Source of the DNA: a virus
IMG/VR virus record: IMGVR_UViG_3300037258_000330
Location: 1-44,037 of that record
Direction: 5' to 3' (one strand)
Length of the DNA stretch: 44,037 nt
Shown piece after piece: positions 1-44,037 of the stretch. Made by a program: the position numbers and the translations under genes. Each line of letters opens with the position of its first letter. The first letter of the stretch is position 1. A model generated the notes under the pieces. That model was given only the letters and a program-made list of their open reading frames with translations, was not told the origin of the DNA and searched no databases.

Positions 1-127
1 GTTTGCCGCCCAGTTTGAGCGGACGCGCGCCGAGGAGTCTCAGCCGGGCTACACGCCCCCGCCGCCGCCCTGGTGGGAGACCCGTCGCCCCCCGACGCCG
101 GCGCCGACGCGCCGGATGAAGGTCGAG
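1..127. repeat. Terminal overlap copy 1 (identical to 43911-44037)
   Basis: Base-by-base reading of both ends gives a 127/127 match. Confidence 0.97.
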
Positions 128-496
128 GAGCTGGTCGCGGCCTGCCTCGGCCCCGAGTCCGCAGCCGCGCTCGAGTCGCTGGTGCTCTGGCTGATGGTCG
201 AGCTCGGCGACCGCGACAACGCCATCACGCGTTCGGCGTGGCTGCGGTCGATCCCGCGCCTGCTCGAGTCGGCCGAGGGTTTCGGTCAACTGGTCGAGCT
301 GATTCTCGCCGCGCCGAAGAAACCCAAGCCAGCGAACTGGCTCTCGACGTGCCTGGCTCGAGGACGGCCAGACGCATCGCAGCAAAAAAACCGACCCCCG
401 GAGCCACACACCACTGTTCCCCGGGGGTCGGCCGAAGAAACGAACGACGCAGGCGATCCGTCTGGGTACAAGTATACACGAAGGGTAAATCCGTGA
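1..496 (+). CDS. 3' part of the junction-spanning replication-initiator-like gene (continues from 43366..43910)
   Basis: The frame of ORF-track entry 116..496 is the same frame as the open frame 43366..44037 once the 127-bp overlap is collapsed. The stop TGA is at 494-496. The combined length is 1041 nt (346 aa). Confidence 0.7.
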   Translation, partial: FAAQFERTRAEESQPGYTPPPPPWWETRRPPTPAPTRRMKVEELVAACLGPESAAALESLVLWLMVELGDRDNAITRSAWLRSIPRLLESAEGFGQLVELILAAPKKPKPANWLSTCLARGRPDASQQKNRPPEPHTTVPRGSAEETNDAGDPSGYKYTRRVNP

Positions 497-531: not shown

Positions 532-633
532 CGCATCGGTTTTAACGATGCGCCCAACGAGGATGACGGGGCTCGAACCCGCAACCTCCGGCGTGACAGG
601 GCTCCAATCTATCGGCTCGTCGCATCGTTAAAA
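532..633. repeat. Inverted repeats bracketing the attP core: TTTTAACGATGCG (540-552) / CGCATCGTTAAAA (621-633), plus a third CGCATCG at 532-538
   Basis: The 13-bp arms are perfect reverse complements read directly. 532-552 is itself a 7-bp-stem hairpin. Confidence 0.85.
558..599 (-). other. attP core: 3' half of a tRNA-Asp(GUC) (anticodon loop to discriminator), not a full tRNA
   Basis: The minus strand reads CTGTCAC (loop, anticodon GTC) GCCGG AGGTT GCGGG TTCGAGC CCCGT CATCCTC G. T-arm, variable loop and 3' acceptor are canonical. The upstream sequence cannot pair as a 5' acceptor or 5' anticodon stem. It lies 150 bp from the integrase. Confidence 0.7.
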
Positions 634-3324: not shown

Positions 3325-3552
3325 ATGGCCAAGCCAAAGAAGCCCAAGGCCGACCCGCTCAAGCAACGCACGGCCCAGGTCGCCCTCGGCATCCGGCCGC
3401 TCTGGATCCTGACCGAGGGGGCGATGCCGGTGCTCGTCAGCTCGAGCGCCCGGCACAAGGTCGACATGACGAAGGTGACTCACTTCCAGCGCGAGGGCGA
3501 CCCGCACTGGCGGCCGATCGCGGAACTGCTTGCGAAAGGCGACGACGAATGA
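3325..3552 (+). CDS. Hypothetical early protein (75 aa, basic N-terminus)
   Basis: The ATG is 1 nt after the previous stop. The 3' end forms an ATGA overlap with the methylase gene. Confidence 0.6.
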   Translation: MAKPKKPKADPLKQRTAQVALGIRPLWILTEGAMPVLVSSSARHKVDMTKVTHFQREGDPHWRPIAELLAKGDDE

Positions 3553-4424
3553 GACCGGCGCTGCGCTATTACGGGGGCAAGTGGAAGATCGCGCCCTGGG
3601 TGATCAGCCATCTGCCGCCCCATCGGGTGTATGTCGAGCCGTTCGGCGGCGCGGCGTCCATCCTCTTGCGCAAGCCCCGCTCCTATGCCGAGGTGCTCAA
3701 CGATCTCGACGGTGAGGTTATCAACGTGTTCGCCGTCCTGCGCGATCCCGCCTCGGCGCTACGCCTGAAGGAGATCGTAGCGCTCACTCCGTTCGCACGG
3801 GACGAGTTCAAGCTTGCTCATGAATGGTCCGAGGAACCGGTCGAGCGTGCGCGGAGGGCGGTGATTCGTGCCTTCATGGGCTTTGGGTCGAATTCGTTTC
3901 ACGGGAAGGGGGGCATGCGGACGCGCTCATCTCCATGGACGGTATGCCGTACGGGTTTTCGCGCGAATGCCAAGCGCCAGGGTACGACGCCGGCGAGCGA
4001 CTGGGCGAGCTGGCCGGACTCGATTCCCGGGTTCATCGAGAGACTCCGTGGCGTGGTGATCGAGAACCGCGATGCGCTCGAGATCATGCGCCAGCACGAC
4101 GGCGCGGAGACGCTCTATTACCTCGACCCGCCCTACCTGATGACGACCAGGTCGTCGCGCGATCAGTACACGTTCGAGCTCGACGAGGACGGACACCGCG
4201 AGCTGGCCGAGGTTGCTCGATCGATGGTCGGATCGGTCGTGATCTCGGGTTACCACTCCGAGCTTTATGAGGACCTCTACCGCGGCTGGGTCCGCGTCGA
4301 GCGGCCCGCCCTGGCCGACGGCGCGCGGCCGCGTACCGAGGTCCTCTGGCTCTCGCCACGGGCGCACCGATCGTTACGGGACTCGAGGAATTCACTGTTC
4401 GATTTACTGGGACCACTCGTATGA
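3549..4424 (+). CDS. dam: DNA N6-adenine methyltransferase, Dam/D12 class
   Basis: YYGGKWK, EPFGGAASI (AdoMet motif) and YLDPPY (catalytic DPPY) are all present. Confidence 0.92.
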   Translation: MRPALRYYGGKWKIAPWVISHLPPHRVYVEPFGGAASILLRKPRSYAEVLNDLDGEVINVFAVLRDPASALRLKEIVALTPFARDEFKLAHEWSEEPVERARRAVIRAFMGFGSNSFHGKGGMRTRSSPWTVCRTGFRANAKRQGTTPASDWASWPDSIPGFIERLRGVVIENRDALEIMRQHDGAETLYYLDPPYLMTTRSSRDQYTFELDEDGHRELAEVARSMVGSVVISGYHSELYEDLYRGWVRVERPALADGARPRTEVLWLSPRAHRSLRDSRNSLFDLLGPLV

Positions 4425-7111
4425 AACCCCGCATCCAAGAAGACTCTCCCGACCCCCTGCGGGTCACACCGAAACGCCTGGCCGACGAGCTCGGCCAGAT
4501 CGGCGACCAGCTCGGCCGGCTGGCCAACCGCGTCCGGCCGTTCGCGTTGCTCCTGGACGCGGCCGTGCGCGATGACGTCAACGCGCTGTACGACTCGATC
4601 ACGGTCGGCTCGCGGCGGGCCGTGGACCTGGCGGCGTCGATCCGGTTCGGCGGCGCGGCGATCGTCCAGGCGCTCGTCGACACCGCGGCCGGCCGCGGCG
4701 AGCGGCCGCTCCTCGACCGGATCGAGAGTGCTCCGGCTCCGGCCGGGCCGGCCGCGGGTTATGAGTCGGTGCTTACGGCGCTGCCGGGGGCCAACGGGGC
4801 GGCCGAGCCGGAGCCGGCGAAGCGAAGCGCCAAGGCACCGGCGAAATTCGCGTGGGAGGTGTGGGCCTTCAACTCGGCGGGGATGCCGGTCTCGCTCTGC
4901 CCGATCACAGTGCCGACTCGCGATCCGGAGCGGGCGCTCGAATATGCGCGGCAGGCGGTGACCGAGGGTGAGGACAAGCTCATCGACATCGATAGGTCTC
5001 TCGTTCCCGTCGATCCGGCCAAGCTCAAAGTGCTTCGCATGGGATCGCCAGAGGCGGTGAAATTCGCGTCCGAGTCGGAGCGGGCGCCGGCGTGGACCGG
5101 GGGTGAGGTCGTCGCCGCCGGCGAGTACACGCTCGAGGAGCTCGGCCTGGGCGGCCAGCTCGACCGGATCGAGGCTGCATACAGCGGCGACACGATCGCG
5201 AGCAATGGAAAGCTCCGGGGCGTGATCGCCGTCAAGGATCGTCTCTATGCCAATGTCGGCGGCCTCATGAAGGGGGGCACGATATTGCGGGTCGATCTGG
5301 TCAAGCTGGTGCCGCTTGAGAGCTGGACCGGGGCGAGCTGCACGTATGCGGAACGGGCCATGACGCGCCCGCATAAAGATTTCTACAATTCCGTCCGGGT
5401 CGAGCACAAGGGCCAGTCGTACGTGATGCTCGGCAAACTCGGCCGGTTGAACATCGTTATCCCGCCGGCCGCTGAGACGGTTCCCCAGCCGGCCGAGCCG
5501 GCGCCGGTCGAATCGGAGCCGGAGCCGGCCGAGGCGCCCGAGAAGACCGTCAAGATCCCGACCGACGCCGAGGAACGCAAGGCGCGGCGGCGCGAGAACG
5601 ACGCGAAGTACCAGGCCAAGAAGCGCGAGAAGCGGCTGCTCGACAAGGCGATCGGCAACCGGGTCGAGTCGGCCGGCCCGGTCGATCGCCGCGAGAAACT
5701 CCGGGAGCCGGTGCTCGGGCCGACCGTGCCGGCGAAGTCGCTGGCGACGCCGGCCCACTGGGCGTCCGTGCCGATCGCCGAGCTGCAATTGACCGACGCC
5801 AGCAAGCGGGCCCTGGCCGACGGCATGAAATTCAAGACGGCCGGCGACGTCGCCGACTGGCTCGCGACCAACCCCAAAGCGCCCTGGCCGACGCCGTCGG
5901 CGACGCCGTGGCCGGAGGTCGTCGAGATCGCCAAGGTCGCGATCGAGCTCGTCAAGAAACTGCATGAGCAGCCGGCCGAGCCGCCGGCCGACGTCGAATG
6001 CTGCTCGGTGCTCTCGCCGTGTCCCGAGGGTTACCAGCGGGTCTACAGCGTGCACGCGCGGGAAACCTACACACGGGCGGAGATCCGGGCCGGCGCGAAG
6101 CCGCAGCGCCTGGGCGAAGTCATCGCGGCCAACATCGATGAGGCGAAGCTTGCGGCGGCGCGCCGGTTCGGCGTCCGGCCGGTCGAGGTCGGCGAGTGCA
6201 TGGTCGATGGTGGCAAGGGGCAGAAGATCGTTCGTGTGCCTCGGTTTGATGTGCTCGATCTGAAGGCGGTCGACAAGAAAGGCCAGTACAAGGTCCTGGG
6301 CACGATCGATGCGCCGAACAGCGCCCGCGCCCGGATCATCGCCGAGAAACGGTGGTCCGACCTGCCGCCCGACCGGCTCAACATCCGGAACGTCGAGCTC
6401 CGGCCGGCCGAGTCCAAGCCGCGCAAGCCGAAACCGAAGCCGGCCCCCGAGCCCGACCCGCTTGAGAACCTGTTTATCTATTGGGGCCAGGGCAAGGGCG
6501 GGAAGCAGGTGAACCCGGTCTACGGGATCAAGGCGCCGTCGCTCACGGCGGCGGTCGCCTGGGTCGATGCGCATCACCCCAAGGATCACGGCGGCCAGGT
6601 CCGGCCCGACCTCGACGGTACGATCGTGCGCCGCAAGGTGCCGGTCGTCGTCGATCTCGTGCTCAATCCGGCGGCCCATCCGGACCCCCCGCCGGCCGAG
6701 CTGGCCACGCCGACGGCCGCAGGCCAGATCGACCTATGCACCCTGCATGGCCAGCCGCCGCTGCCGGCCGGGCACGAGCGCGTCTTCAGCGTGTACGACA
6801 GCCGGACAAATCCGCCGACTGTGCTCGGCGAGATCGCCGGCGCGAACATCACCCGGGCCATGATGGCGGCCGAGGCGCAGTGGCCCGACGTGCCGAAGCG
6901 GATGCTCGCCTACAAGCCCAAGCTCGCGCCCGGGACCAAGCATCAGGCGACCCGGCCGGCCAATCGGCTCGTCGACCCCGACGTCGAGCTGGCGGAGTTC
7001 CGGCGCTCGTTCGACGTCGGCGCCGACCGCGCGCAGTGGCTGCTCGAGCAAAGGAGCAACGGCGAGCCGGACCTCGAGCCGGAGCCGGCCGAAAGCGAGG
7101 CGTCCGGATGA
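4421..7111 (+). CDS. Large orphan early protein (896 aa) with five repeated beta-beta-alpha-like modules, Pro/Glu/Ala linkers and a helix-hairpin-helix-like segment
   Basis: ATGA coupling to dam. The composition is protein-like, unlike the Arg-rich antisense ORF 4277..6679. ELQLTDASKRALADGMKFKTAGDVADW resembles an RNA polymerase alpha-CTD-type HhH. Confidence 0.85.
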   Translation: MKPRIQEDSPDPLRVTPKRLADELGQIGDQLGRLANRVRPFALLLDAAVRDDVNALYDSITVGSRRAVDLAASIRFGGAAIVQALVDTAAGRGERPLLDRIESAPAPAGPAAGYESVLTALPGANGAAEPEPAKRSAKAPAKFAWEVWAFNSAGMPVSLCPITVPTRDPERALEYARQAVTEGEDKLIDIDRSLVPVDPAKLKVLRMGSPEAVKFASESERAPAWTGGEVVAAGEYTLEELGLGGQLDRIEAAYSGDTIASNGKLRGVIAVKDRLYANVGGLMKGGTILRVDLVKLVPLESWTGASCTYAERAMTRPHKDFYNSVRVEHKGQSYVMLGKLGRLNIVIPPAAETVPQPAEPAPVESEPEPAEAPEKTVKIPTDAEERKARRRENDAKYQAKKREKRLLDKAIGNRVESAGPVDRREKLREPVLGPTVPAKSLATPAHWASVPIAELQLTDASKRALADGMKFKTAGDVADWLATNPKAPWPTPSATPWPEVVEIAKVAIELVKKLHEQPAEPPADVECCSVLSPCPEGYQRVYSVHARETYTRAEIRAGAKPQRLGEVIAANIDEAKLAAARRFGVRPVEVGECMVDGGKGQKIVRVPRFDVLDLKAVDKKGQYKVLGTIDAPNSARARIIAEKRWSDLPPDRLNIRNVELRPAESKPRKPKPKPAPEPDPLENLFIYWGQGKGGKQVNPVYGIKAPSLTAAVAWVDAHHPKDHGGQVRPDLDGTIVRRKVPVVVDLVLNPAAHPDPPPAELATPTAAGQIDLCTLHGQPPLPAGHERVFSVYDSRTNPPTVLGEIAGANITRAMMAAEAQWPDVPKRMLAYKPKLAPGTKHQATRPANRLVDPDVELAEFRRSFDVGADRAQWLLEQRSNGEPDLEPEPAESEASG

Positions 7112-7831: not shown

Positions 7832-8938
7832 ATGAAGGCTACATGCTCGCGGCGTGGCTTTACCCTGATCGAGATTCTGATGGTGATCGTGATCATCGGC
7901 GTGCTCGTCGGCCTGCTCGTGCCGGCGATCGCGGGCGCGATGCGGGCCGCGAATAACGCGGCCGTGCAGTCGGAGCTGAACGCGCTGGCGTCGGCCCTGA
8001 CGGCGTTCCGGAGCCAGTTCGGCGACTATCCCCCGTCGCGGATCTTGCTCTGCGAGGACGGGAATTATGCACCGTTCTTCACGTCGGGCACGTACACGCT
8101 CGGCCAGACGGCGAGCCCGTCGGCGATCGACCAGTCGGACGGGGCGCTCGCGGCCCGGTCGATCTCGGCGCTCCGGAAGATGTTCCCGCGCTGCGCCCAG
8201 TCGGCCGCCGGCCCGCTCTACAACCTGGCGAGCGGCTGGCCCGACTACAACGGCAACGGCCAGATCGACCCGCCGCGGCTGATCTCGGGCGACGAGTGCC
8301 TGGTGTTTTTCCTCGGCGGCCAGCCGACGAAACTGGCCGGCCCGCCCGGCTCGTCGACGCCGGCCTGGGCGACGACCGGGTGGGGCGCCGACCCGCGGGC
8401 GCCCTTCCTGGTGGCCGCGAAGAACCGGATCCAGCCGCTCTATGATTTCGCGGCCAACCGGCTCGTCGACGCCGACGGCGATGGGTACCCGTCGTACGTC
8501 GACAGCCTCGGCACCAGCCGGCCGATCGTGTACTTCAGCGGGTACAGCGGGGCCGGCTACGACCCCAATGACGTGAACTTCGACGTCGGGTCAACATACG
8601 TCGAGACCGACGAGAACGGCACCACGTCGCCGATCGCCTTGCGGTTCACCGTGGCGTTTCCCGTGCTGGGCGGCGCACCGGCGGCGATCTCGCCGGCGCC
8701 GAACCCGTACACGTATTCGACGTCGGTCGCGAGCCCGGCGAACTGGATCAAGCCGCAATCGTTCCAGGTCTTCTCGGCCGGCGGCGACGGCCAGTACGGG
8801 GTCGGCGGCCTCTATAGCGACTCGGCCGACGAGCCGTTGCCGGTCGACACGGCGAACACGACGCCGTCGTCGGATGCGGGGATCAGGATACGTGAGCGTG
8901 ACAACCTGACCAATTTCCGGAACGGCCGGCTGGACTGA
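7832..8938 (+). CDS. Prepilin-type (GspG/type IV pilin-like) protein with a large C-terminal extension
   Basis: MKATCSRRG/FTLIEILMVIVIIGVLVGLLVPA shows a class III signal peptide with Gly-1, Phe+1 and Glu+5. The following helix, NNAAVQSELNALASALTAFRSQFGDYPPS, resembles T2SS GspG. GAGG is 7 nt upstream. Confidence 0.85.
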   Translation: MKATCSRRGFTLIEILMVIVIIGVLVGLLVPAIAGAMRAANNAAVQSELNALASALTAFRSQFGDYPPSRILLCEDGNYAPFFTSGTYTLGQTASPSAIDQSDGALAARSISALRKMFPRCAQSAAGPLYNLASGWPDYNGNGQIDPPRLISGDECLVFFLGGQPTKLAGPPGSSTPAWATTGWGADPRAPFLVAAKNRIQPLYDFAANRLVDADGDGYPSYVDSLGTSRPIVYFSGYSGAGYDPNDVNFDVGSTYVETDENGTTSPIALRFTVAFPVLGGAPAAISPAPNPYTYSTSVASPANWIKPQSFQVFSAGGDGQYGVGGLYSDSADEPLPVDTANTTPSSDAGIRIRERDNLTNFRNGRLD

Positions 8939-25344: not shown

Positions 25345-26760
25345 TCAGGAGTGCGTGGCCGAAGTGCCGACGAAGCCGGAGACCTGGTTGCTTTGCGTCC
25401 CGTCCGCGAGGTAGTAAGGCGCGATCTGGCCGGGCTTGCCGTCGTTGCGGATCTTCGCGCGAATCGCGATCTGGTCGGTGTCGAACAGGAAGTGCTCGGA
25501 CAGGCCGATCTCCAAACCCGACCGGCGGCCGACCCAGTACTTCTTACGGTCGATTAGCATCAGGTCGCAGGCGTCGCCCAGGACCGGCGCTTTTTCCGAC
25601 GCGTAGAGCTGCCAGCCGAGGAACACTCCGGACGGCCGGTAGGCCAGGCCGCCGGCGGCGACGGCGCCGACGCCGGGCGTGGCGACGATCGTCGAATAGG
25701 GGATGAAGATGAACCGCCCCGAGGGATCCTGCATCGTCTCGAGCTGGTACAGCGTGTAGGGGTGACAGACCCAGCACGGCGACATCGGGTTCTGTGCGAA
25801 CCGCGTCTTCATCGTGAAGACGTCCTGGTACAGGATCTCGTCGTTGGTGTTTCGGTCCACCAGGAGCATCGCCGGCGAGTTGGTCACACCCAAGAATTGC
25901 CCCGCGCCATTGCCCTGAAACGACTCCCAATCCTCGCGCCAGCCGATGGCGCCGCCAATCATCCGGATCGCGTACGCGTCCATGCCCGACGCATCGTAGA
26001 TCAGGTCGCGGGACAGCTCGGTCAGGGCCGTCAGGTCCTGCGCCAGCATCTGGATTTTCTTGAGCGCGAAATCGGTCTCGGTGCGCTGGACCTTTTCGCC
26101 CTTCCGGTAGACCTGCACGCCGCCGTACCAGGCGCTCTGCCCCAGGACCGGAGCCGTGAACTGGTTCAACGCCGTGTACTCGACCTGGCGCGCGGCGAGC
26201 GGCTTGACGTCGGCCGCCGGCACGATGATCTCTTCCTCGGCCGCGACCTCGAAGAACATCGACTCATAAACGACCGGCGTGGCGTAGCCACCGGTCGAGC
26301 CGGCGCCTTCCGCCATGTTCCGGCTCGAGCCGTACCCGCCCTCTTCCCAGGGCCGGCAAAGCTCCTCGTGGGCATTGCGGCACTCGTCGGCATCGCGCGA
26401 GCCGAGGGCCTCGATCACGGTCCGCACGAAATGCCCGGGGCCGGCCCGGCGGCGGTCGATCTCCTGCGACCCGGAATCGATCCGGCCGTTGAACTCGATC
26501 CCGCCGTTCGAGGCGACGAGCTGGCGGGGACGAGCGAGCGGGCCCTGGCTCGCGCCGAGCTGGCTCCGGGTCCGGTCGGCCTGGGCCTGGATCAGGGGTT
26601 GCAACTGCGCCACGGCCATTGCGGCCGCGCGCTGCGCGGGATCTTCGGGGGCCGCCTCGGCGACGCCGAGGGCGACGTAATTCTGGGCGATGGCGTCCGC
26701 GACGTCGGCGAACGAGCCACTCTTGGCCGTGCCGATATCACGGATGAACTTGATCCACAT
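25345..26760 (-). CDS. Major capsid protein, HK97 fold, with N-terminal delta/scaffold-like region
   Basis: STGGYATPVVYE followed by a typical HK97-family body. The ATG at 26760 is preferred over the GTG at 26835 because the first 25 codons have poor codon bias. Confidence 0.85.
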   Translation of the reverse strand: MWIKFIRDIGTAKSGSFADVADAIAQNYVALGVAEAAPEDPAQRAAAMAVAQLQPLIQAQADRTRSQLGASQGPLARPRQLVASNGGIEFNGRIDSGSQEIDRRRAGPGHFVRTVIEALGSRDADECRNAHEELCRPWEEGGYGSSRNMAEGAGSTGGYATPVVYESMFFEVAAEEEIIVPAADVKPLAARQVEYTALNQFTAPVLGQSAWYGGVQVYRKGEKVQRTETDFALKKIQMLAQDLTALTELSRDLIYDASGMDAYAIRMIGGAIGWREDWESFQGNGAGQFLGVTNSPAMLLVDRNTNDEILYQDVFTMKTRFAQNPMSPCWVCHPYTLYQLETMQDPSGRFIFIPYSTIVATPGVGAVAAGGLAYRPSGVFLGWQLYASEKAPVLGDACDLMLIDRKKYWVGRRSGLEIGLSEHFLFDTDQIAIRAKIRNDGKPGQIAPYYLADGTQSNQVSGFVGTSATHS

Positions 26761-26899
26761 GGGTAGAAACCTTGGGGGTTCGTAGTTGTCGAACAGGCCC
26801 AGGGCGTAGACTTGCGGACGGACGGGGGGCGTCACGTTCGGCGGCGGTGGTCGTCGTCGTGCTCGCCTGGTGCGTCGCTATCTCTCGTCAGGGTCGGAC

Positions 26900-30084: not shown

Positions 30085-30266
30085 GCGGCGGTGTCCGGCA
30101 CGGGTGCGATCGGGGTCCGCAGGAGCAAGCAACACCGTTTGAACTTCCGCCCCGACTTGCACGGACAGGGCGCGTTCCGGAGGATCGCATGCCGGTATTT
30201 GCGGCCGGTCGCCCGGTCGAACAGCACCAGGCGCGGGTCATTGCTCAGGAACATCAGCGGCTTCAC
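30081..30266 (-). CDS. SEC-C motif zinc-binding miniprotein (61 aa)
   Basis: PCPCKSGRKFKRCC is a SecA C-terminal type metal-binding motif. The GTG forms a GTGA overlap with the portal stop. Confidence 0.65.
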   Translation of the reverse strand: MKPLMFLSNDPRLVLFDRATGRKYRHAILRNAPCPCKSGRKFKRCCLLLRTPIAPVPDTAA

Positions 30267-31753
30267 GCGGCACTCTCCATTTCAATCTGCTCGAGCACTC
30301 GGCCGAACCGGTCCCACAATCGTTTCTTCTCCGGATCGCCGGCCGCGGGCCGAGGCTGCGCCGCGGCCTTTTCGGCCACACCCTGCGCATGCTCTCTCGC
30401 CTCGGCCGCGGCCGTCGGTTGCATCTGCGTCGAGGGGAACCACGGCTCGTCACCCCACTCGACCGGATCAAGCCCGTCGTCGGCCCGCGTCTCGTTGATA
30501 TAGCGCGTGCCGTTCTTGATCTGCATGTCGACGATCTTCGCGTGCCGCTCTTCATCGCGCGTCACCGCATCATCGAATGCGAAGAACAGCCGGTCGTCGA
30601 CCGGCCGCGCCGCCTGGTGCGTGAGCGCGTTGGCGATGATGCAACACCGCGGCGCGATCGCGTAATACTGGTGCTGATGCGTCCCCTCGCTCGCGACCGC
30701 CCGGTTCGTGTCCTCGGCCTGCAGGAGCGAGATCGGCACGTCAAAGCAGTTCGCAACGAGCAGCCGCTCCCACTTCGAAATCTCGAGGCCCGACAGGTCC
30801 GCCGGCGGGTACGCGATCGGCTGGACGTCGACCGAGCCGTCGGTCGTCCAGACCCGGCCCTGCCGGCCGCGGCCGAACTTCTGGTTGATGTCGACCTCAA
30901 ACCGCTTCCGCGACGTCTCGTCCCAGGGGTGTTGCAGGCCGTCCTTGGGCGAGATCATGAGCGACATCTGCGCGTCGTTCTTCAGGAACGACTCGACGAC
31001 CGACAGGTAGTAATCACCGAGCCCGACCGACTCGAAGCACGCGTGCAAGGGCGCGTAGGCCGAGAGGTACGGGTCACGAAGCGACACGTACCGGATCCGG
31101 ACCAGGTCCGTCGCCGAGAACTGGTCGCCGAAGTACTTGTACCCGCGGAGGACCTCGGTTCCGGTGCCTTTGATCGCGTAAACATACTGCGATTGGAGAC
31201 CCCAGACCTTCATTCCCTCGCGGGCCTGGCTCGGATCGTTCGATCCGTCGGCCCGGACCGGCCGCTCGGGATAGAGGTAGGCCGCGCCGACGACGTCCAA
31301 CTGGCGGGCGATCAGATTGAGTAACAGGTTGCCGTCGAAGTAGTCGTTGGGCGCGTCCGTGATCGCCGTCAGAAGCGGGTGCTCCGTGATCTCGTCGACC
31401 TGGTCGCCGTCGGCGATCGACCGCGTGAGATATGGGAGCGACCGCAGGTACCGCTGCCGGCCGGTGGAGACCGCCCGACACGACCGGCGGGGGCGCGCCT
31501 GCTTGGGGCTGGTCTTGGCGTACAACCGCAATGGCACACGCGCCACACCGTTCGCATTCAATTGGATGCATGAGTAAGCGACGTTTTTGTAGGCATTGGT
31601 CAACTCATACGGCGTCGGCGGCCGCTTCGAACGCGCGATGTCGAGCCACACCGGCCCGCCGGCGCCGTAGCCGACGGCACCCGAGGCGATGCCGGCCGGC
31701 GCCGATCGCTCGAGCGAATCGAGGTAGGCCGCGACTTCAGAGTGGGTTCGCAC
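30263..31753 (-). CDS. Portal protein (HK97-family type)
   Basis: 496 aa, positioned between terminase and MuF. Typical portal composition with an acidic C-terminal tail. Confidence 0.85.
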   Translation of the reverse strand: MRTHSEVAAYLDSLERSAPAGIASGAVGYGAGGPVWLDIARSKRPPTPYELTNAYKNVAYSCIQLNANGVARVPLRLYAKTSPKQARPRRSCRAVSTGRQRYLRSLPYLTRSIADGDQVDEITEHPLLTAITDAPNDYFDGNLLLNLIARQLDVVGAAYLYPERPVRADGSNDPSQAREGMKVWGLQSQYVYAIKGTGTEVLRGYKYFGDQFSATDLVRIRYVSLRDPYLSAYAPLHACFESVGLGDYYLSVVESFLKNDAQMSLMISPKDGLQHPWDETSRKRFEVDINQKFGRGRQGRVWTTDGSVDVQPIAYPPADLSGLEISKWERLLVANCFDVPISLLQAEDTNRAVASEGTHQHQYYAIAPRCCIIANALTHQAARPVDDRLFFAFDDAVTRDEERHAKIVDMQIKNGTRYINETRADDGLDPVEWGDEPWFPSTQMQPTAAAEAREHAQGVAEKAAAQPRPAAGDPEKKRLWDRFGRVLEQIEMESAA

Positions 31754-32164: not shown

Positions 32165-32493
32165 TCGACGACCCGCATTTTCGAACGACGGACCGTGGTG
32201 AATCGACGCACCGAGCCGGCATGCGGACCGTAGTCATAGACCTCGGCAGCAAGCAGATCACCTCGGTCGCCGAGCAGTCCGTTGAGGATGCCCAGCGAAC
32301 AGAGGTAATACCCCACGTACCCGTGACGTTCGTCGTCGCTGACAACTTCCCGGACCGGGATCGTCGGATGGTCGGCCAGCGCCTGGTTGCAGGGCACGAC
32401 GTTCCGTATCAACGCTGTGACCGCCAGCGGGTCGAGCGCGAGCGCCGAGTTCAGGAGCTCGGCCATCTTCCTCGCCGACAGTGAACGTCTCAT
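32161..32493 (-). CDS. Hypothetical protein (110 aa)
   Basis: ATGA overlap with the TerL stop. Confidence 0.6.
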   Translation of the reverse strand: MRRSLSARKMAELLNSALALDPLAVTALIRNVVPCNQALADHPTIPVREVVSDDERHGYVGYYLCSLGILNGLLGDRGDLLAAEVYDYGPHAGSVRRFTTVRRSKMRVVE

Positions 32494-34034
32494 TGCTCGT
32501 CACTCCACCAGTGCGGGTCGTCCGCGTCGGCCTGCCGTTCGAGCGCCCGTTGCCGCTTGGCAACCAGCTCCGCCTCGGCCTCGGCCTTCTCGCGCGCCGC
32601 CCGGAGCTCGTCCGGCTCGGTCGCGGCGCCGCTCCAAAACACGTTCTCGGCCGCCATCGACGTGACGTCGACGACGTCGTCGTGCGCGCCGTCCGGGAAT
32701 GCCTGAAGCTCCGCCTCATAGTCGGCGAGCCAGGGCGCCCGCTCGGGGAAAAACACCTGGCCGGCTTCGACCCGGACGATCGCGGTCTGCGCCCAGCTCA
32801 GCTTGTCCGGATGCTTGGTACAGCCCCTGACCGCCAATCCGGCCCGGCGCATCGTCTGCACCACGCCGAGCTGCATCCCGTTGGCCTCGACCAGGAGATA
32901 CGCGACCGCGTGCCGTCGGCACGTGTCCGCCGCCGCCTTGATGACGTCGGGCGACTCGAGCCGGTCCCGGACGAGGTCGACCAGGATCAGGTCGCTCTCG
33001 AGCGACACGGCCCAGATCGCGATCACGGTGTAGTCGGCCGACGTTTTGATCGAGGTCGCCAGATCGACGGTCCCGAACGACCGGCAGTCGCGGGCCCGTA
33101 CGACACGGACGGTCGCACCGAGCGGGTCGAGCAGCCGGTAGATCCGGTCGCCGTCGTTCCCTTCCGCGCGCCAGTACCGGAACCAGCTCCTCTTGAACGC
33201 GTTCCCCTCGGCCGGCCGCGGCGACCCTTGAAAGAGCGCGTAGAAACTGTTCCGCAGGACCTTCTCGCGCCGCCGCAAGACCTCGATCGGATACCGGTCC
33301 GGGCAGAGCGCTTCGCCCGGCTCGCGGCCGAGCGGGTCATTCTCTTCGGCGATCGCCGGCAGGTTGACGTAGGTCCAATCCGGCCCTTCCTCGGTCCCCT
33401 TGATCCGGCCCTGCAGGTCGTCTTCGTGCCACCTGGTCATCGTGCCGACGATCGCGGCCCCGGGCTCGGCCCGGGTCACGAGGTCGTCGACGTACGAGTC
33501 GTGGACGCGGTTGCGATAGGTTTCGCTGTTCGCCTCGAGCCGCGACTTCACCGGGTCATCGATCAAGATCAGGTTGGCGCCCATTCCGGTGATCCCGACG
33601 CCGATCCCGGCCGCCCGGACTCCGCCGCCGGCGGCCGTCTCCCACTCGCCGGCGGAGTTACGGTCCGTCGAGAGTGGGAGACGTTCGCCGACGATCCGGC
33701 GGATCTTCCGGCTGAATTTCTCGGCCAAGGCCTGCGAGTAGGCCCACACGATGACCCGCAGCGTCGGGTCACACTCGATCCGCCATGCCGCATACCGGAC
33801 CGTATTATGCTCGGTCTTGCCGTGCCGCGGCGGGCACGACATCCATAGCCGGTCGATCTCACCCGACGTGATCCGGCCGAGCTGGCCCCGCATGTACTCG
33901 AGGTGCGGCCAGTCCCAGGTCCAGCTCGGCGACACTTCGCCGAGCCACTCGTCGAACGGCTTCAGACGCGCCCGCCGCCGAAGCTCGAGCTCAGCCGCCG
34001 CTTGAGCCTGCAACGATGGCGCGGAGCTGGTCAT
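32490..34034 (-). CDS. terL: Terminase large subunit
   Basis: Walker A-like CPPRHGKTE and Walker B-like NLILIDDP, with a C-terminal nuclease-type region. 514 aa. Confidence 0.9.
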   Translation of the reverse strand: MTSSAPSLQAQAAAELELRRRARLKPFDEWLGEVSPSWTWDWPHLEYMRGQLGRITSGEIDRLWMSCPPRHGKTEHNTVRYAAWRIECDPTLRVIVWAYSQALAEKFSRKIRRIVGERLPLSTDRNSAGEWETAAGGGVRAAGIGVGITGMGANLILIDDPVKSRLEANSETYRNRVHDSYVDDLVTRAEPGAAIVGTMTRWHEDDLQGRIKGTEEGPDWTYVNLPAIAEENDPLGREPGEALCPDRYPIEVLRRREKVLRNSFYALFQGSPRPAEGNAFKRSWFRYWRAEGNDGDRIYRLLDPLGATVRVVRARDCRSFGTVDLATSIKTSADYTVIAIWAVSLESDLILVDLVRDRLESPDVIKAAADTCRRHAVAYLLVEANGMQLGVVQTMRRAGLAVRGCTKHPDKLSWAQTAIVRVEAGQVFFPERAPWLADYEAELQAFPDGAHDDVVDVTSMAAENVFWSGAATEPDELRAAREKAEAEAELVAKRQRALERQADADDPHWWSDEQ

Positions 34035-35111: not shown

Positions 35112-35825
35112 TCACGGGGTGGTTATCAGTTTGGGAGCGGCCTCGAGCTCGACCGTGATCCGGTACGCGCCCGCCGCAGGAATCCGGAGCGGGACGGCGA
35201 CCGGAGCCGCCGCGCCGACTGCGATGCCGAGCACCGTGTCGCCGGCCTCGGTGAAGATCGCGTCGATCGCGAGCGACCGGTCGACTGTGAGCGTCGGCAC
35301 GGCCGCCGGCTCGACCGGAGCGGGCGCGGGCGCCGCGAGGGGGTACCGCTCGAGGGCTTGGGCGACGTCGTCGGGCTGGGGGCCGGCGAGCTGAGGCTGA
35401 TAGATCGGATTCATGATGGCCGGCGTGGCCGTCGTATGCACGAAACCGAGCGCGTGCCCGAACTCGTGCATGGCGACCTGGGCGAGCTCCTCGACCGTCC
35501 AGGCGACGTCGATGTTGAGCTGCATCGTCACTTGATCCACGCCGGTCGGAAGCTGAGTCAACCCGAGCTCGACGCCGCTGGGATCCAGTGTCGCGAACTC
35601 AATGAGCACGTGCGCGGCTTCGCCCGTGCCCGATGCCGTCTGCACGCCGCACACTTGCGGCCAGACGTCGGCCGCGGCGACGATCGCCGAGAGCGCGTCC
35701 GACCACGAGAGTCCGGCAGGGAGCGGATCGGTCCGGAGCCAGTACGTGACGAGCGTTCCGGGTGCCCAGCGATAGATCGCGGTGTCTCTCAGCTCGGGGC
35801 GGCCGCAATGACAATTCGCCTTCAC
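35112..35825 (-). CDS. Matrixin-type metzincin zinc protease (M10-like) with C-terminal beta domain
   Basis: HEFGHALGFVH (HExxHxxGxxH) plus the Met-turn AIMNPIY. The GTG start forms a GTGA overlap. Confidence 0.85.
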   Translation of the reverse strand: MKANCHCGRPELRDTAIYRWAPGTLVTYWLRTDPLPAGLSWSDALSAIVAAADVWPQVCGVQTASGTGEAAHVLIEFATLDPSGVELGLTQLPTGVDQVTMQLNIDVAWTVEELAQVAMHEFGHALGFVHTTATPAIMNPIYQPQLAGPQPDDVAQALERYPLAAPAPAPVEPAAVPTLTVDRSLAIDAIFTEAGDTVLGIAVGAAAPVAVPLRIPAAGAYRITVELEAAPKLITTP

Positions 35826-38837: not shown

Positions 38838-39113
38838 ATGATTGTGCCTGTGACTAAGACTCTTTGCACGCTCGGCGAATACGGCGCGAACCGCATTTGG
38901 TTTAGCTCTTGCTCGATGGGCTACCAGGCGGGCGAGACGTTTGAAATCGACGACGTCCAGACCTGCGGTGTCCCCGACGCCTGGTTCGAACTCGAGGGCG
39001 ATGTGGACGGTGACGGCACATGGCATTGGATGGGCAAGGGCGATCCAGTTGACGAGCATGGGGCGACAGTCAGGAACATGAGGGCATGGGTCGCAGATCA
39101 GGACGCATCATGA
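38838..39113 (+). CDS. Small acidic protein (91 aa); anti-defence candidate
   Basis: AAGGA is 9 nt upstream. Contains ETFEIDDVQTCGVPDAWFELEGDVDGDGTWHW. Taken from the tail of track ORF 38715..39113. Confidence 0.65.
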   Translation: MIVPVTKTLCTLGEYGANRIWFSSCSMGYQAGETFEIDDVQTCGVPDAWFELEGDVDGDGTWHWMGKGDPVDEHGATVRNMRAWVADQDAS

Positions 39114-39340
39114 TCGACCGCATCGAATCCGGCCGCCGCCTGGCCGCCGCCCGCCAGGCCCGCGGCCTCACGCAGGCCGCCGCCGCCGAGCTCGCCCCGA
39201 TCTCGGCCCGCGAGCTCTCCGACCTCGAGCGCGGCCGGCGGATGCCGTCATGGGCACTCGTGCTCGAGCTGGTCGGCCGGCTCGGCCTCGACCCGGCCAT
39301 CGTCGCGCCCGAGCTGGTCGGGCGCAAGGCCTCGAAATAA
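39110..39340 (+). CDS. XRE/Cro-type helix-turn-helix regulator (76 aa)
   Basis: ATGA overlap with the upstream gene. RLAAARQARGLTQAAAAELAPISARELSDLERGRRMPSWALVLELVGRLGL is a canonical HTH_XRE pattern. Confidence 0.85.
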   Translation: MIDRIESGRRLAAARQARGLTQAAAAELAPISARELSDLERGRRMPSWALVLELVGRLGLDPAIVAPELVGRKASK

Positions 39341-42456: not shown

Positions 42457-42875
42457 GCTGGTGTGACTACCGGCCGGTCGTGACCGTCGTTGACGTCCTC
42501 GAGACGAAGGCCTGCTATTCCGGCGTGATTGACTGGATCAGCCGGCACGACAGGCTGATCAGTGCGCCGACGGACCAATTTGCGAACCGCTACGTCAACA
42601 CCGCCGCCCGCGCTGACGGCTCCGGCTCCGGCTACGGCGACGGCTCCGGCTCCGGCTACGGCGACGGCTCCGGCTACGGCTACGGCGACGGCTCCGGCTC
42701 CGGCGACGGCTCCGGCTACGGCTACGGCGACGGCTCCGGCTCCGGCTCCGGCTACGGCGACGGCTCCGGCTACGGCTCCGGCTACGGCTCCGGCTACGGC
42801 GACGGCTCCGGCTACGGCTCCGGCTACGGCTCCGGCTACGGCGACGGCTCCGGCTACGGCTCCGGCTCCGACTGA
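42453..42875 (+). CDS. Protein with N-terminal Cys-containing domain and a C-terminal (G-S/Y/D) repeat tail
   Basis: ATGA overlap with the upstream gene. MSWCDYRPVVTVVDVLETKACYSGVIDWISRH is followed by DGSGSGYGDGSGYGYGDGSG... Confidence 0.7.
   Translation: MSWCDYRPVVTVVDVLETKACYSGVIDWISRHDRLISAPTDQFANRYVNTAARADGSGSGYGDGSGSGYGDGSGYGYGDGSGSGDGSGYGYGDGSGSGSGYGDGSGYGSGYGSGYGDGSGYGSGYGSGYGDGSGYGSGSD
42615..42872 (+). repeat. Tandem 6-nt/18-nt coding microsatellite (GGCTCC / GGCTAC / GGCGAC units)
   Basis: About 43 consecutive hexamer units read directly. All are in frame with 42453..42875. Confidence 0.95.
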
Positions 42876-42904
42876 TTGACGTCCGTCCGCAATCGCAGTA
42901 TCTT
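42876..42904 (+). promoter_or_regulatory. Promoter-like element TTGACG-17-TATCTT immediately after the stop codon
   Basis: -35 is at 42876-42881 and -10 at 42899-42904. It has the same -35 hexamer as the other two promoters. Confidence 0.4.
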
Positions 42905-43083: not shown

Positions 43084-43365
43084 ATGCCCAACTCGACGCC
43101 CCATCGCAACGCGCACGCGTTGCCGAACGGAAACCGCGCGCCTCAAGAGCGGTCCCGTCGCGAGTCCAAGACAGGCGGTTACATCAGCGACGCTAGGTGT
43201 CGCCGGCTGTATCTCAAGGCCCAGGGCCGCATGATCACCGATCGCGAGCACGCCCTGTTCCTCGAAAAGCATCGCGCTTTCCTCCGCGACGTCTTCGCTG
43301 ACACCTTCCTCGACGGCGTCATCGCCGATCACGATCCCGCGGCCGATCTGACGGAGGACGAGTAG
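43084..43365 (+). CDS. Hypothetical protein (93 aa) immediately upstream of the initiator gene
   Basis: High GC3 throughout. The TAG stop abuts the next ATG. Confidence 0.55.
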   Translation: MPNSTPHRNAHALPNGNRAPQERSRRESKTGGYISDARCRRLYLKAQGRMITDREHALFLEKHRAFLRDVFADTFLDGVIADHDPAADLTEDE

Positions 43366-44037
43366 ATGGCGTCTTCCCGAGCGATCCACCGGCTCGAGGT
43401 CCTGGTCGATCTCCAGCTCGACGGCCGTCTGTCCGCGACCGCGCGCCTGATCCTCGGCTCACTCCCCCCGCTGGCCGGCGGGGGGGTGGTGAGCCCGACC
43501 GACCGCGAGCTGGCCGAGCTGCACGGCTGCTCCGAGCGAACCGTCCGGTCGGCACTCGCCGCCGGCGTCCGCGCCGGCTGGATCCGCCGGCTCACCCGGG
43601 CCGAGGCTATGGCCGAGCGCCTGGTTCCCCGGGAAGCGGCAAAAGGCCGCCGGTACCTGGTGCTCCTGTGGGTGGTCGAGGCCCGCGAGCCGGCAACTTT
43701 CTGCCGGCAACTTCCTGCCGCTTCCCCGTTGGCTACCGGCAGGAAGTTGCCGGCTCCCACCGAGTTGCCGGCAGAAAGTTGCCGCCCCCTCGCGTGTGCG
43801 CCCGTTTCGAACCCCTCTTTACGAACGAAGAGAGAAGAACGTACGAGCGATTTCTCTCCCCCCGTGGGAATGCCGCCCTTGACCGGGTGCAGTCCCGCGA
43901 CCAAGCGCCTGTTTGCCGCCCAGTTTGAGCGGACGCGCGCCGAGGAGTCTCAGCCGGGCTACACGCCCCCGCCGCCGCCCTGGTGGGAGACCCGTCGCCC
44001 CCCGACGCCGGCGCCGACGCGCCGGATGAAGGTCGAG
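43366..44037 (+). CDS. 5' part of the junction-spanning replication-initiator-like gene (wHTH N-terminal domain; continues at position 128 after collapsing the overlap)
   Basis: The ATG at 43366 opens a frame with no stop to the window end (hand-translated). Contains ARLILGSL...VSPTDRELAELHGCSERTVRSALAAGVRAGWIRR. It is absent from the ORF track because it runs off the end. Confidence 0.7.
   Translation, partial: MASSRAIHRLEVLVDLQLDGRLSATARLILGSLPPLAGGGVVSPTDRELAELHGCSERTVRSALAAGVRAGWIRRLTRAEAMAERLVPREAAKGRRYLVLLWVVEAREPATFCRQLPAASPLATGRKLPAPTELPAESCRPLACAPVSNPSLRTKREERTSDFSPPVGMPPLTGCSPATKRLFAAQFERTRAEESQPGYTPPPPPWWETRRPPTPAPTRRMKVE
43690..43784. repeat. Iteron cluster: CCGGCAACTT(T/C)CTGCCG twice direct and twice inverted, plus one extra half-site
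   Basis: Direct copies are at 43690-43707 and 43704-43720. Inverted copies are at 43737-43753 and 43768-43784. The half-site AGTTGCCGG is at 43763-43771. Copy 1 is the reverse complement of copy 4, and copy 2 of copy 3. Confidence 0.9.

Follow-up and report, generated by a model that had tools for sequence, protein, structure and literature searches.

We analysed the full 44,037 nucleotides (nt) of the IMG/VR record IMGVR_UViG_3300037258_000330, hereafter the window. The contig is a temperate tailed phage, and our subject is a gene of 346 amino acids (aa) that crosses the junction of the contig ends and carries a cluster of repeats in its middle. Positions 1-127 of the window are an exact copy of positions 43911-44037 and the molecule is therefore a circle of 43,910 base pairs (bp); the length of this overlap probably corresponds to a common maximum k-mer of the assembler. 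An earlier note on this DNA had proposed that the gene encodes a replication initiator arranged like gene O of phage lambda, with its origin inside the coding sequence. The gene and the elements within it are the following:

43366-44037, plus strand: initiator-like gene, 5' part (aa 1-224), from the open reading frame (ORF), the junction and the homologue alignment
43366-43665, plus strand: region coding for the winged-helix domain (aa about 3-100), from the AlphaFold2 model, HTH_36, PHROG 270 and a codon-position ratio of 2-3
43690-43707: site 1, CCGGCAACTTTCTGCCGG, an 18-bp dyad with a 4-bp overlap with site 2
43704-43721: site 2, CCGGCAACTTCCTGCCGC
43736-43753: site 3, CCGGCAGGAAGTTGCCGG, which is site 2 inverted
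43762-43771, minus strand: extra half-site, CCGGCAACTC
43768-43785: site 4, CCGGCAGAAAGTTGCCGC, which is site 1 inverted
43789-43804: GC-rich box CTCGCGTGTGCGCCCG, whose DNA is conserved in every homologue, with its 'LACA' kept even in distant relatives
43809-43864: AT-richer conserved patch and candidate unwinding element, from the GC minimum, homologue conservation, a pair of TACGARCGA motifs and the pyrimidine run TTTCTCTCCCCCC
44020-44037, continuing at 128-370, plus strand: start of the region coding for the C-terminal helical domain (aa 219-305)
128-496, plus strand: initiator-like gene, 3' part (aa 225-346, stop codon TGA at 494-496), from the ORF and the junction

The earlier note had read the gene as a single frame from the ATG at 43366 to 44037 and on into 128-496, and on the re-circularised contig this frame reads through to the TGA at 494-496. 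The start codon follows directly on the TAG of a 93-aa upstream ORF and has the sequence GGAGGA 7 nt upstream. The note had also remarked that the ORF track misses the gene, in agreement with the public protein collection, where the sole product of this gene of the contig is the truncated 126-aa protein P0011 (window 116-496). Eight relatives are aligned unbroken over junction residues 182-224 (seven of them have 337-356 aa and are 40-52 % identical), and over the junction there is likewise no break in the alignment of about a dozen full-length relatives, which are 27-52 % identical. These alignments validate the circular join and confirm the earlier observation that the junction-spanning gene is real.

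Scanning for CCGGCAACTTYCTGCCG located matches at 43690-43706 (+), 43704-43720 (+), 43737-43753 (-) and 43769-43785 (-, with 1 mismatch). Four matches compare with 0.48 expected, none of 100 shuffles reaches four, and a search of the whole genome gave no match beyond these mid-gene copies. The repeats stand in the order 1-2...2'-1' within 43690-43785 with the variants TTT, TTC, TTC and TTT, and each forms an 18-bp dyad with 6-bp arms (CCGGCA-N6-TGCCGG), with centres 14, 32 and 32 bp apart. The number, order and internal symmetry of the copies as well as the extra half-site had been described in the earlier note, and all were recovered.

The repeats are followed by the GC minimum of the gene. 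The lowest GC fraction over 45 bp is 0.47 at 43809 in a genome of 68 % GC, a value at or below which lie only 0.7 % of the 45-bp intervals, and the third-position GC content (GC3), at 0.85-0.95 in the flanks, drops to 0.50-0.55 within 43786-43875, as the earlier note had claimed. The patch holds two TACGARCGA 9-mers at 43820 and 43842, 22 bp apart, which are the sole two in the genome.

We built an AlphaFold2 model of the protein with a 16-sequence alignment. It predicts a winged helix (aa 3-100) with a predicted local distance difference test score (pLDDT) of 72-92, a disordered linker (aa 105-175, pLDDT 41-50), a helix (aa 177-194, about 72-79 as means of 10-residue blocks), a helical bundle (aa 219-305, about 95, with a range of 92.5-97 including a stand-alone model) and a disordered tail (aa 307-346, mostly below 50). 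Modelled alone, the C-terminal domain has a pLDDT of 92.5; a Foldseek search of this domain against the PDB found no fold match (E>2). According to the model, the predicted linker is encoded by exactly the repeats and the low-GC patch.

That the N-terminus resembles a winged-helix or helix-turn-helix (HTH) domain, as suspected before, is confirmed by the structure model, by a weak Pfam match to HTH_36 (PF13730; 19.7 bits, E=7e-4, below the 25-bit cut-off) and by the profile neighbours. Three weak matches in PHROGs all belong to replication-initiator families (270, E=6.7e-5; 1032; and the O-like 391, E=0.038). A profile search of 1.84 billion representative proteins returned 43 matches, with about a dozen full-length relatives; among the aligned weaker matches, 32 of 34 are HTH_36 proteins, nearly all of them matching the N-terminal domain only, with RP-C and DnaD_N also among the neighbours. 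Compared with the families that the earlier note had named for the N-terminus, the protein has DnaD_N among its profile neighbours, lambda O reached a probability of 0.5 % in hhalign, and RepA_N structures gave an E of about 0.25 in a fold search. A fold search of BFVD found best matches with E of 5e-6 to 1e-3 over about 300 columns, all phage proteins of similar size. Their names, which are annotations and not tested functions, include 'Replication initiator A family', 'RepA-like replication initiator', 'Replisome organizer' and 'HTH domain protein'. The two-domain fold is thus common to annotated phage initiators; the root mean square deviation of these matches is high because the linker is flexible.

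DNA-level constraint on the linker

Substitutions were counted by codon position in a codon alignment of the window gene with seven homologues (L001, L003, L004 and L006-L009). Both aa 7-75 and aa 221-305 have a ratio of 2-3 between change at third positions and the average change at the other two, which points to purifying selection on the protein in the two folded domains. Over aa 105-180 the same ratio is 1.0-1.4. Within this part, the repeat region diverges fast at all codon positions (0.45-0.55) and the patch is conserved at all three (0.23-0.30) with no periodicity. The substitution pattern shows that the linker is constrained at the DNA level, not at the protein level. Codon periodicity is lost over the repeats and the patch and kept in both domains, which bears out the earlier suggestion that the DNA rather than the protein is selected mid-gene. 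Since the linker is predicted to be disordered, its DNA could be selected for binding or melting without harm to the protein. The gene is a clear example of an open reading frame in which selection on the DNA overrides that on the protein.

Each of the seven homologues has its own cluster of 3-5 repeats at the same position of the gene. Most of them reuse the CCGGCA/TGCCGG half-site, with varying number and orientation: L004 has three direct 23-mers and L008 has an overlapping dyad pair as in the window. In L009, the most divergent homologue (40 % identical), the recognition helix and the wing are altered and the repeat is another one, (TGCGGGAT)GTGCACCCAGAACCCGCAC(CGGCGTTCCG), present in about three copies. 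In the more distant relatives P0012 and P0013, seen at the peptide level only, the linker also contains repeats, such as GVDDHHPS twice in P0012. Inverted copies cannot be peptide repeats and the repeats therefore act at the DNA level. The DNA elements common to the homologues are the box CTCGCGTGCGCGC, the element TCTGAATTACGAACGA, the palindrome ACGAACGTTCGT and the pyrimidine run.

Further searches for relatives added little. Protein-profile scans of viral and genome contig collections found no relatives, a metagenome profile scan gave one addition (L010, a near-duplicate of L007), a second word-index protein search added nothing and tblastn against the INPHARED phages gave no match.

A proposed origin inside the gene and the alternatives

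We consider it likely that the 346-aa protein is the replication initiator of the phage and that the origin lies inside its own gene. An iteron-type theta origin has at least three repeated sites adjoining an unstable region; the gene has four sites plus a half-site and the low-GC patch next to them, in an arrangement that the homologues keep. We hypothesize that dimers of the N-terminal winged helix would bind the four 18-bp dyads at 43690-43785 and that the resulting nucleoprotein complex would strain the adjoining least stable stretch, at about 43809-43864, so that it melts. The C-terminal helical domain, possibly together with the 93-aa protein, would then recruit the host replicative helicase and with it the host replisome. 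Early transcription would cross the origin, as in lambda, because the origin sits in the rightward early operon. The search of every plausible ORF with Pfam, PHROGs and NCBIfam and by a Walker-A scan found no helicase, primase, polymerase or loader, in agreement with the earlier note, which had recognised no helicase, primase or polymerase in the genome.

Several observations weigh against this interpretation. The family assignments of the N-terminal domain are all below curated thresholds, a winged helix alone would suit a transcription factor equally well, and the sequence-profile and fold searches of the PDB returned generic winged helices only (E>0.1). Helicase recruitment is a guess because the C-terminal domain has no known relative. 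The genome has two sites within one mismatch of the DnaA box TTATCCACA, both far off and no more than expected by chance; host DnaA boxes stand near the iterons in many plasmid origins, not in all. The earlier note had called the patch AT-rich, and although it does follow the iterons as the GC minimum of the gene, with 47 % GC it is AT-rich only relative to the 68 % background, and the genome has about 25 further troughs that equal or fall below 0.47 GC. GC skew rises near-monotonically and gives no pointer to an origin, and an 896-aa ORF at 4421-7111 could hide a replication function. The family is small, with about a dozen full-length members, and the comparative statistics consequently rest on few lineages.

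One alternative is that the protein regulates transcription and that the sites form its operator, for example an autoregulatory roadblock in its own gene, apart from replication. Dyad-symmetric sites are typical of operators, and the N-terminal domain fits the generic winged helices of regulators (GntR, Crp, MarR) about as well as those of replication proteins. The sites lie mid-gene however, not at a promoter, and next to them comes a conserved low-GC patch that contains 9-mer repeats of its own; the position of the sites in the linker is kept in all homologues. In addition, phage replication initiators and replisome organisers rank best among the full-length fold matches, and the genome has no other candidate initiator or origin. 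We therefore regard an operator apart from replication as unlikely.

The repeats could instead be a packaging signal, a partition site or arm sites of the phage attachment site (attP), bound by the 346-aa protein or by another one. Packaging (pac) sites are often found inside small-terminase genes and the protein has a weak match to the small-terminase family PHROG 57 (E=0.18), while attP is the next feature downstream of the gene. Against these functions, the gene sits in the early operon, about 10 kb from the large terminase gene on the opposite strand; about 700-800 bp separate the sites from the attP core, more than attP arms usually span; and an integrating phage needs no partition site. 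All three functions seem very improbable to us.

We give equally little credence to the idea that the inverted repeats form a cruciform or a messenger RNA hairpin controlling translation or stability and are not protein-binding sites. The region 43680-43795 folds better than its shuffles (z = -7.7, with 0 of 200 shuffles as good), but the fold is not kept: the homologues have z of -0.8 to -5.3 with differing structures, which rules out one conserved hairpin across the repeats. Several homologues carry mostly direct repeats, and it is the half-site motif and its position that are conserved instead.

Least credible is the possibility of two genes separated by a stop-free non-coding spacer, in which case high GC would have produced the 346-aa ORF as an artefact. 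In its favour, about 190 nt mid-gene and about 130 nt at the 3' end lack the coding signature. A disordered linker between folded domains is however normal for such proteins, and translation from 43366 must read through because there is no stop between the domains. All full-length homologues keep the frame open although they differ by many indels, and on this ground we rejected two genes.

Surroundings of the gene

The other features of the window that we could assign are listed below.

384-431, minus strand: intrinsic terminator with a 14-bp stem (391-431) and U-run (390-384), inside the part of the gene coding for the disordered tail
556-600, minus strand: attP core, 45 nt equal to the 3' end of the transfer RNA (tRNA) gene tRNA-Asp(GTC) of Isosphaeraceae
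746-1756: tyrosine integrase
3549-4424: D12 methyltransferase
25345-26835: HK97-type capsid
30263-31753: portal
32490-34034, on the strand opposite to the initiator gene: large terminase
39086-39340: Cro/CI-type HTH protein
43084-43365, plus strand: 93-aa upstream partner ORF, 51 % identical to the syntenic gene of L001, with no family match

The attP core at 556-600 matches 98 sequence stretches, nearly every one in a genome of Isosphaeraceae or other Planctomycetota (Singulisphaera, Aquisphaera, Tautonia and Tundrisphaera among them). Because it equals the 3' end of tRNA-Asp, the host is likely an Isosphaeraceae planctomycete. The core is bracketed by an inverted repeat of 12-13 bp, TTTTAACGATGCG/CGCATCGTTAAAA (flanks 531-642). 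L003/L007 and L004 have other tRNA-like fragments at the position of attP, and the integration target has therefore been swapped among related phages while the replication module was kept. A small ORF of 65-93 aa precedes the initiator gene in all seven related loci, and the order of small ORF, initiator gene, gap of about 250-350 bp and integrase is kept in the five loci that reach the integrase. The 93-aa ORF of the window is a candidate accessory replication factor.

The 3' end of the initiator gene overlaps further conserved elements. The minus-strand terminator points leftwards and has the stem CCGACCCCCGGGG.../...CCCCGGGGGTCGG followed by U5-7. It pairs in all seven homologues: the differences are G-U wobbles, which pair in the minus-strand RNA alone, and a single compensatory change of CG to UA. 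Even in distant relatives ('QKPTPGA...PGVG') it is conserved more than the overlapping protein tail. Its role may be to halt transcripts that run on from the host tRNA-Asp gene once the phage has integrated, or to form the end of a small antisense RNA. At the extreme end of the gene (window 465-496), the block GTACAAGTATACACGRAGGGTAAATCCGTGA is nearly invariant as DNA, lacks codon periodicity and encodes 'KYTRRVNP*'; candidate functions are an arm site for integrase or Xis, or part of an antisense RNA. A minus-strand hairpin at 477-495 (CACGGA-N7-UCCGUG) is conserved with wobble-only variation. We set aside the block as the start of a small plus-strand gene (GGAGG-N8-GTG), since the downstream sequence is not conserved. 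An Rfam scan found no family at the gathering threshold, and its weak matches to microRNAs and small RNAs near attP are hairpins only.

Elsewhere in the genome, the 896-aa ORF at 4421-7111 (+) has a strong coding signature (GC3 0.88). Pfam, PHROGs and NCBIfam returned nothing for it and it lacks a Walker A motif; the syntenic gene of L004 resembles it at the N-terminus only. Inside this ORF, ARAGORN predicts a tRNA-Arg(CCG) at 4682-4757 (-), a doubtful call because no tRNA reaches the Rfam gathering threshold. A 253-bp tandem array at 42615-42870, which the initiator gene follows after about 500 bp, is made of the hexamers GGCTCC/GGCTAC (periods 6, 24, 30 and 42, with 85-89 % matches). It reads as (PATA)n in the ORF 42562-42879 and is either a low-complexity protein or a DNA-level element. 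The 368-aa protein encoded at 7832-8938 (+) has a prepilin-type N-terminal methylation motif (N_methyl, with a GspG-like N-terminus) and a similar gene is found in L001; proteins with this motif are abundant in Planctomycetes and Verrucomicrobia. A matrixin-type metalloprotease domain (Peptidase_M10, E=6e-12), an unusual cargo for a phage, lies at 35112-35825 (-) between the terminase and the regulatory regions.

A more far-reaching version of the origin-in-gene proposal is that the locus is the founding planctomycete-phage replicon. Here a new C-terminal fold would recruit the host helicase directly without a phage loader, a cassette of about 1.4 kb (43084-496) would hold the initiator gene and the origin, and the opposite-strand terminator would end read-through from tRNA-Asp, placing three layers of DNA-level function in one gene. 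We offer this version as speculative and rather doubtful as a whole.

Comparison with known initiators

Placing the origin inside the initiator gene is a textbook design, known from lambda, P22, SPP1, lactococcal phages and RepA_N plasmids. Our results therefore add a new protein family and a new host phylum to the known cases and leave the principle unchanged. They propose a function for a rare unannotated family as well as a way to find its origin. In planctomycetes, broad-host-range replicons failed to replicate and native parts are wanted for shuttle vectors (bioRxiv 10.1101/2024.01.22.576637). The compact cassette of initiator gene and origin would be a direct candidate for planctomycete vectors.

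The lambda origin lies inside gene O (PMC5043065), in the DNA coding for the linker that joins the N-terminal DNA-binding domain to the C-terminal one, and the 346-aa gene has the same layout. Both genes have four sites of about 18 bp with 6-bp dyad arms followed by the GC minimum of the gene, and both sit in a rightward early operon. In gene coordinates the two arrangements nearly coincide:

Iterons: nt 349-433 in lambda O, nt 325-420 in the 346-aa gene
GC minimum: nt 434 in lambda O, nt 444 in the 346-aa gene
GC at the minimum and gene mean: 0.24 and 0.49 in lambda O, 0.47 and 0.70 in the 346-aa gene

The design and the positions thus support the lambda parallel drawn in the earlier note, while common descent does not follow from it: hhalign of the 16-sequence profile against lambda O gave a probability of 0.5 % (E=0.11) and there is no match to Pfam Phage_rep_O. 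From these comparisons, the resemblance to lambda O is one of design, not of descent. There are differences in detail as well. In lambda the P helicase loader is encoded downstream of O, whereas here attP and the integrase gene lie downstream and no P-like loader was found; and unlike in lambda, two of the sites overlap (14-bp spacing) and the cluster as a whole is a palindrome, 1-2...2'-1'.

In phage SPP1, gp38 binds the oriL repeats, which lie in gene 38 itself beside an AT-rich unwinding element (PMC6316719). The SPP1 repeats are direct while those of the 346-aa gene are dyads, and SPP1 has a loader (gp39) and a helicase (gp40) of its own, neither of which has a detectable counterpart here.

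RepA_N plasmids of Gram-positive bacteria carry their origin in the middle of the rep gene. As in the 346-aa gene, an N-terminal winged-helix initiator domain is combined with repeats in a variable central part. The RepA_N systems are plasmids, whereas ours is an integrating tailed phage, and the fold matches to the RepA_N structures 5kbj and 4pql are not significant (E about 0.25). The BFVD proteins annotated as 'replisome organizer' or 'replication initiator' have the same two-domain layout as the 346-aa protein. Taken together, these comparisons suggest that the 346-aa protein would work as an initiator of the O/gp38 type while belonging to a separate, rare family whose N-terminal domain is close to HTH_36.

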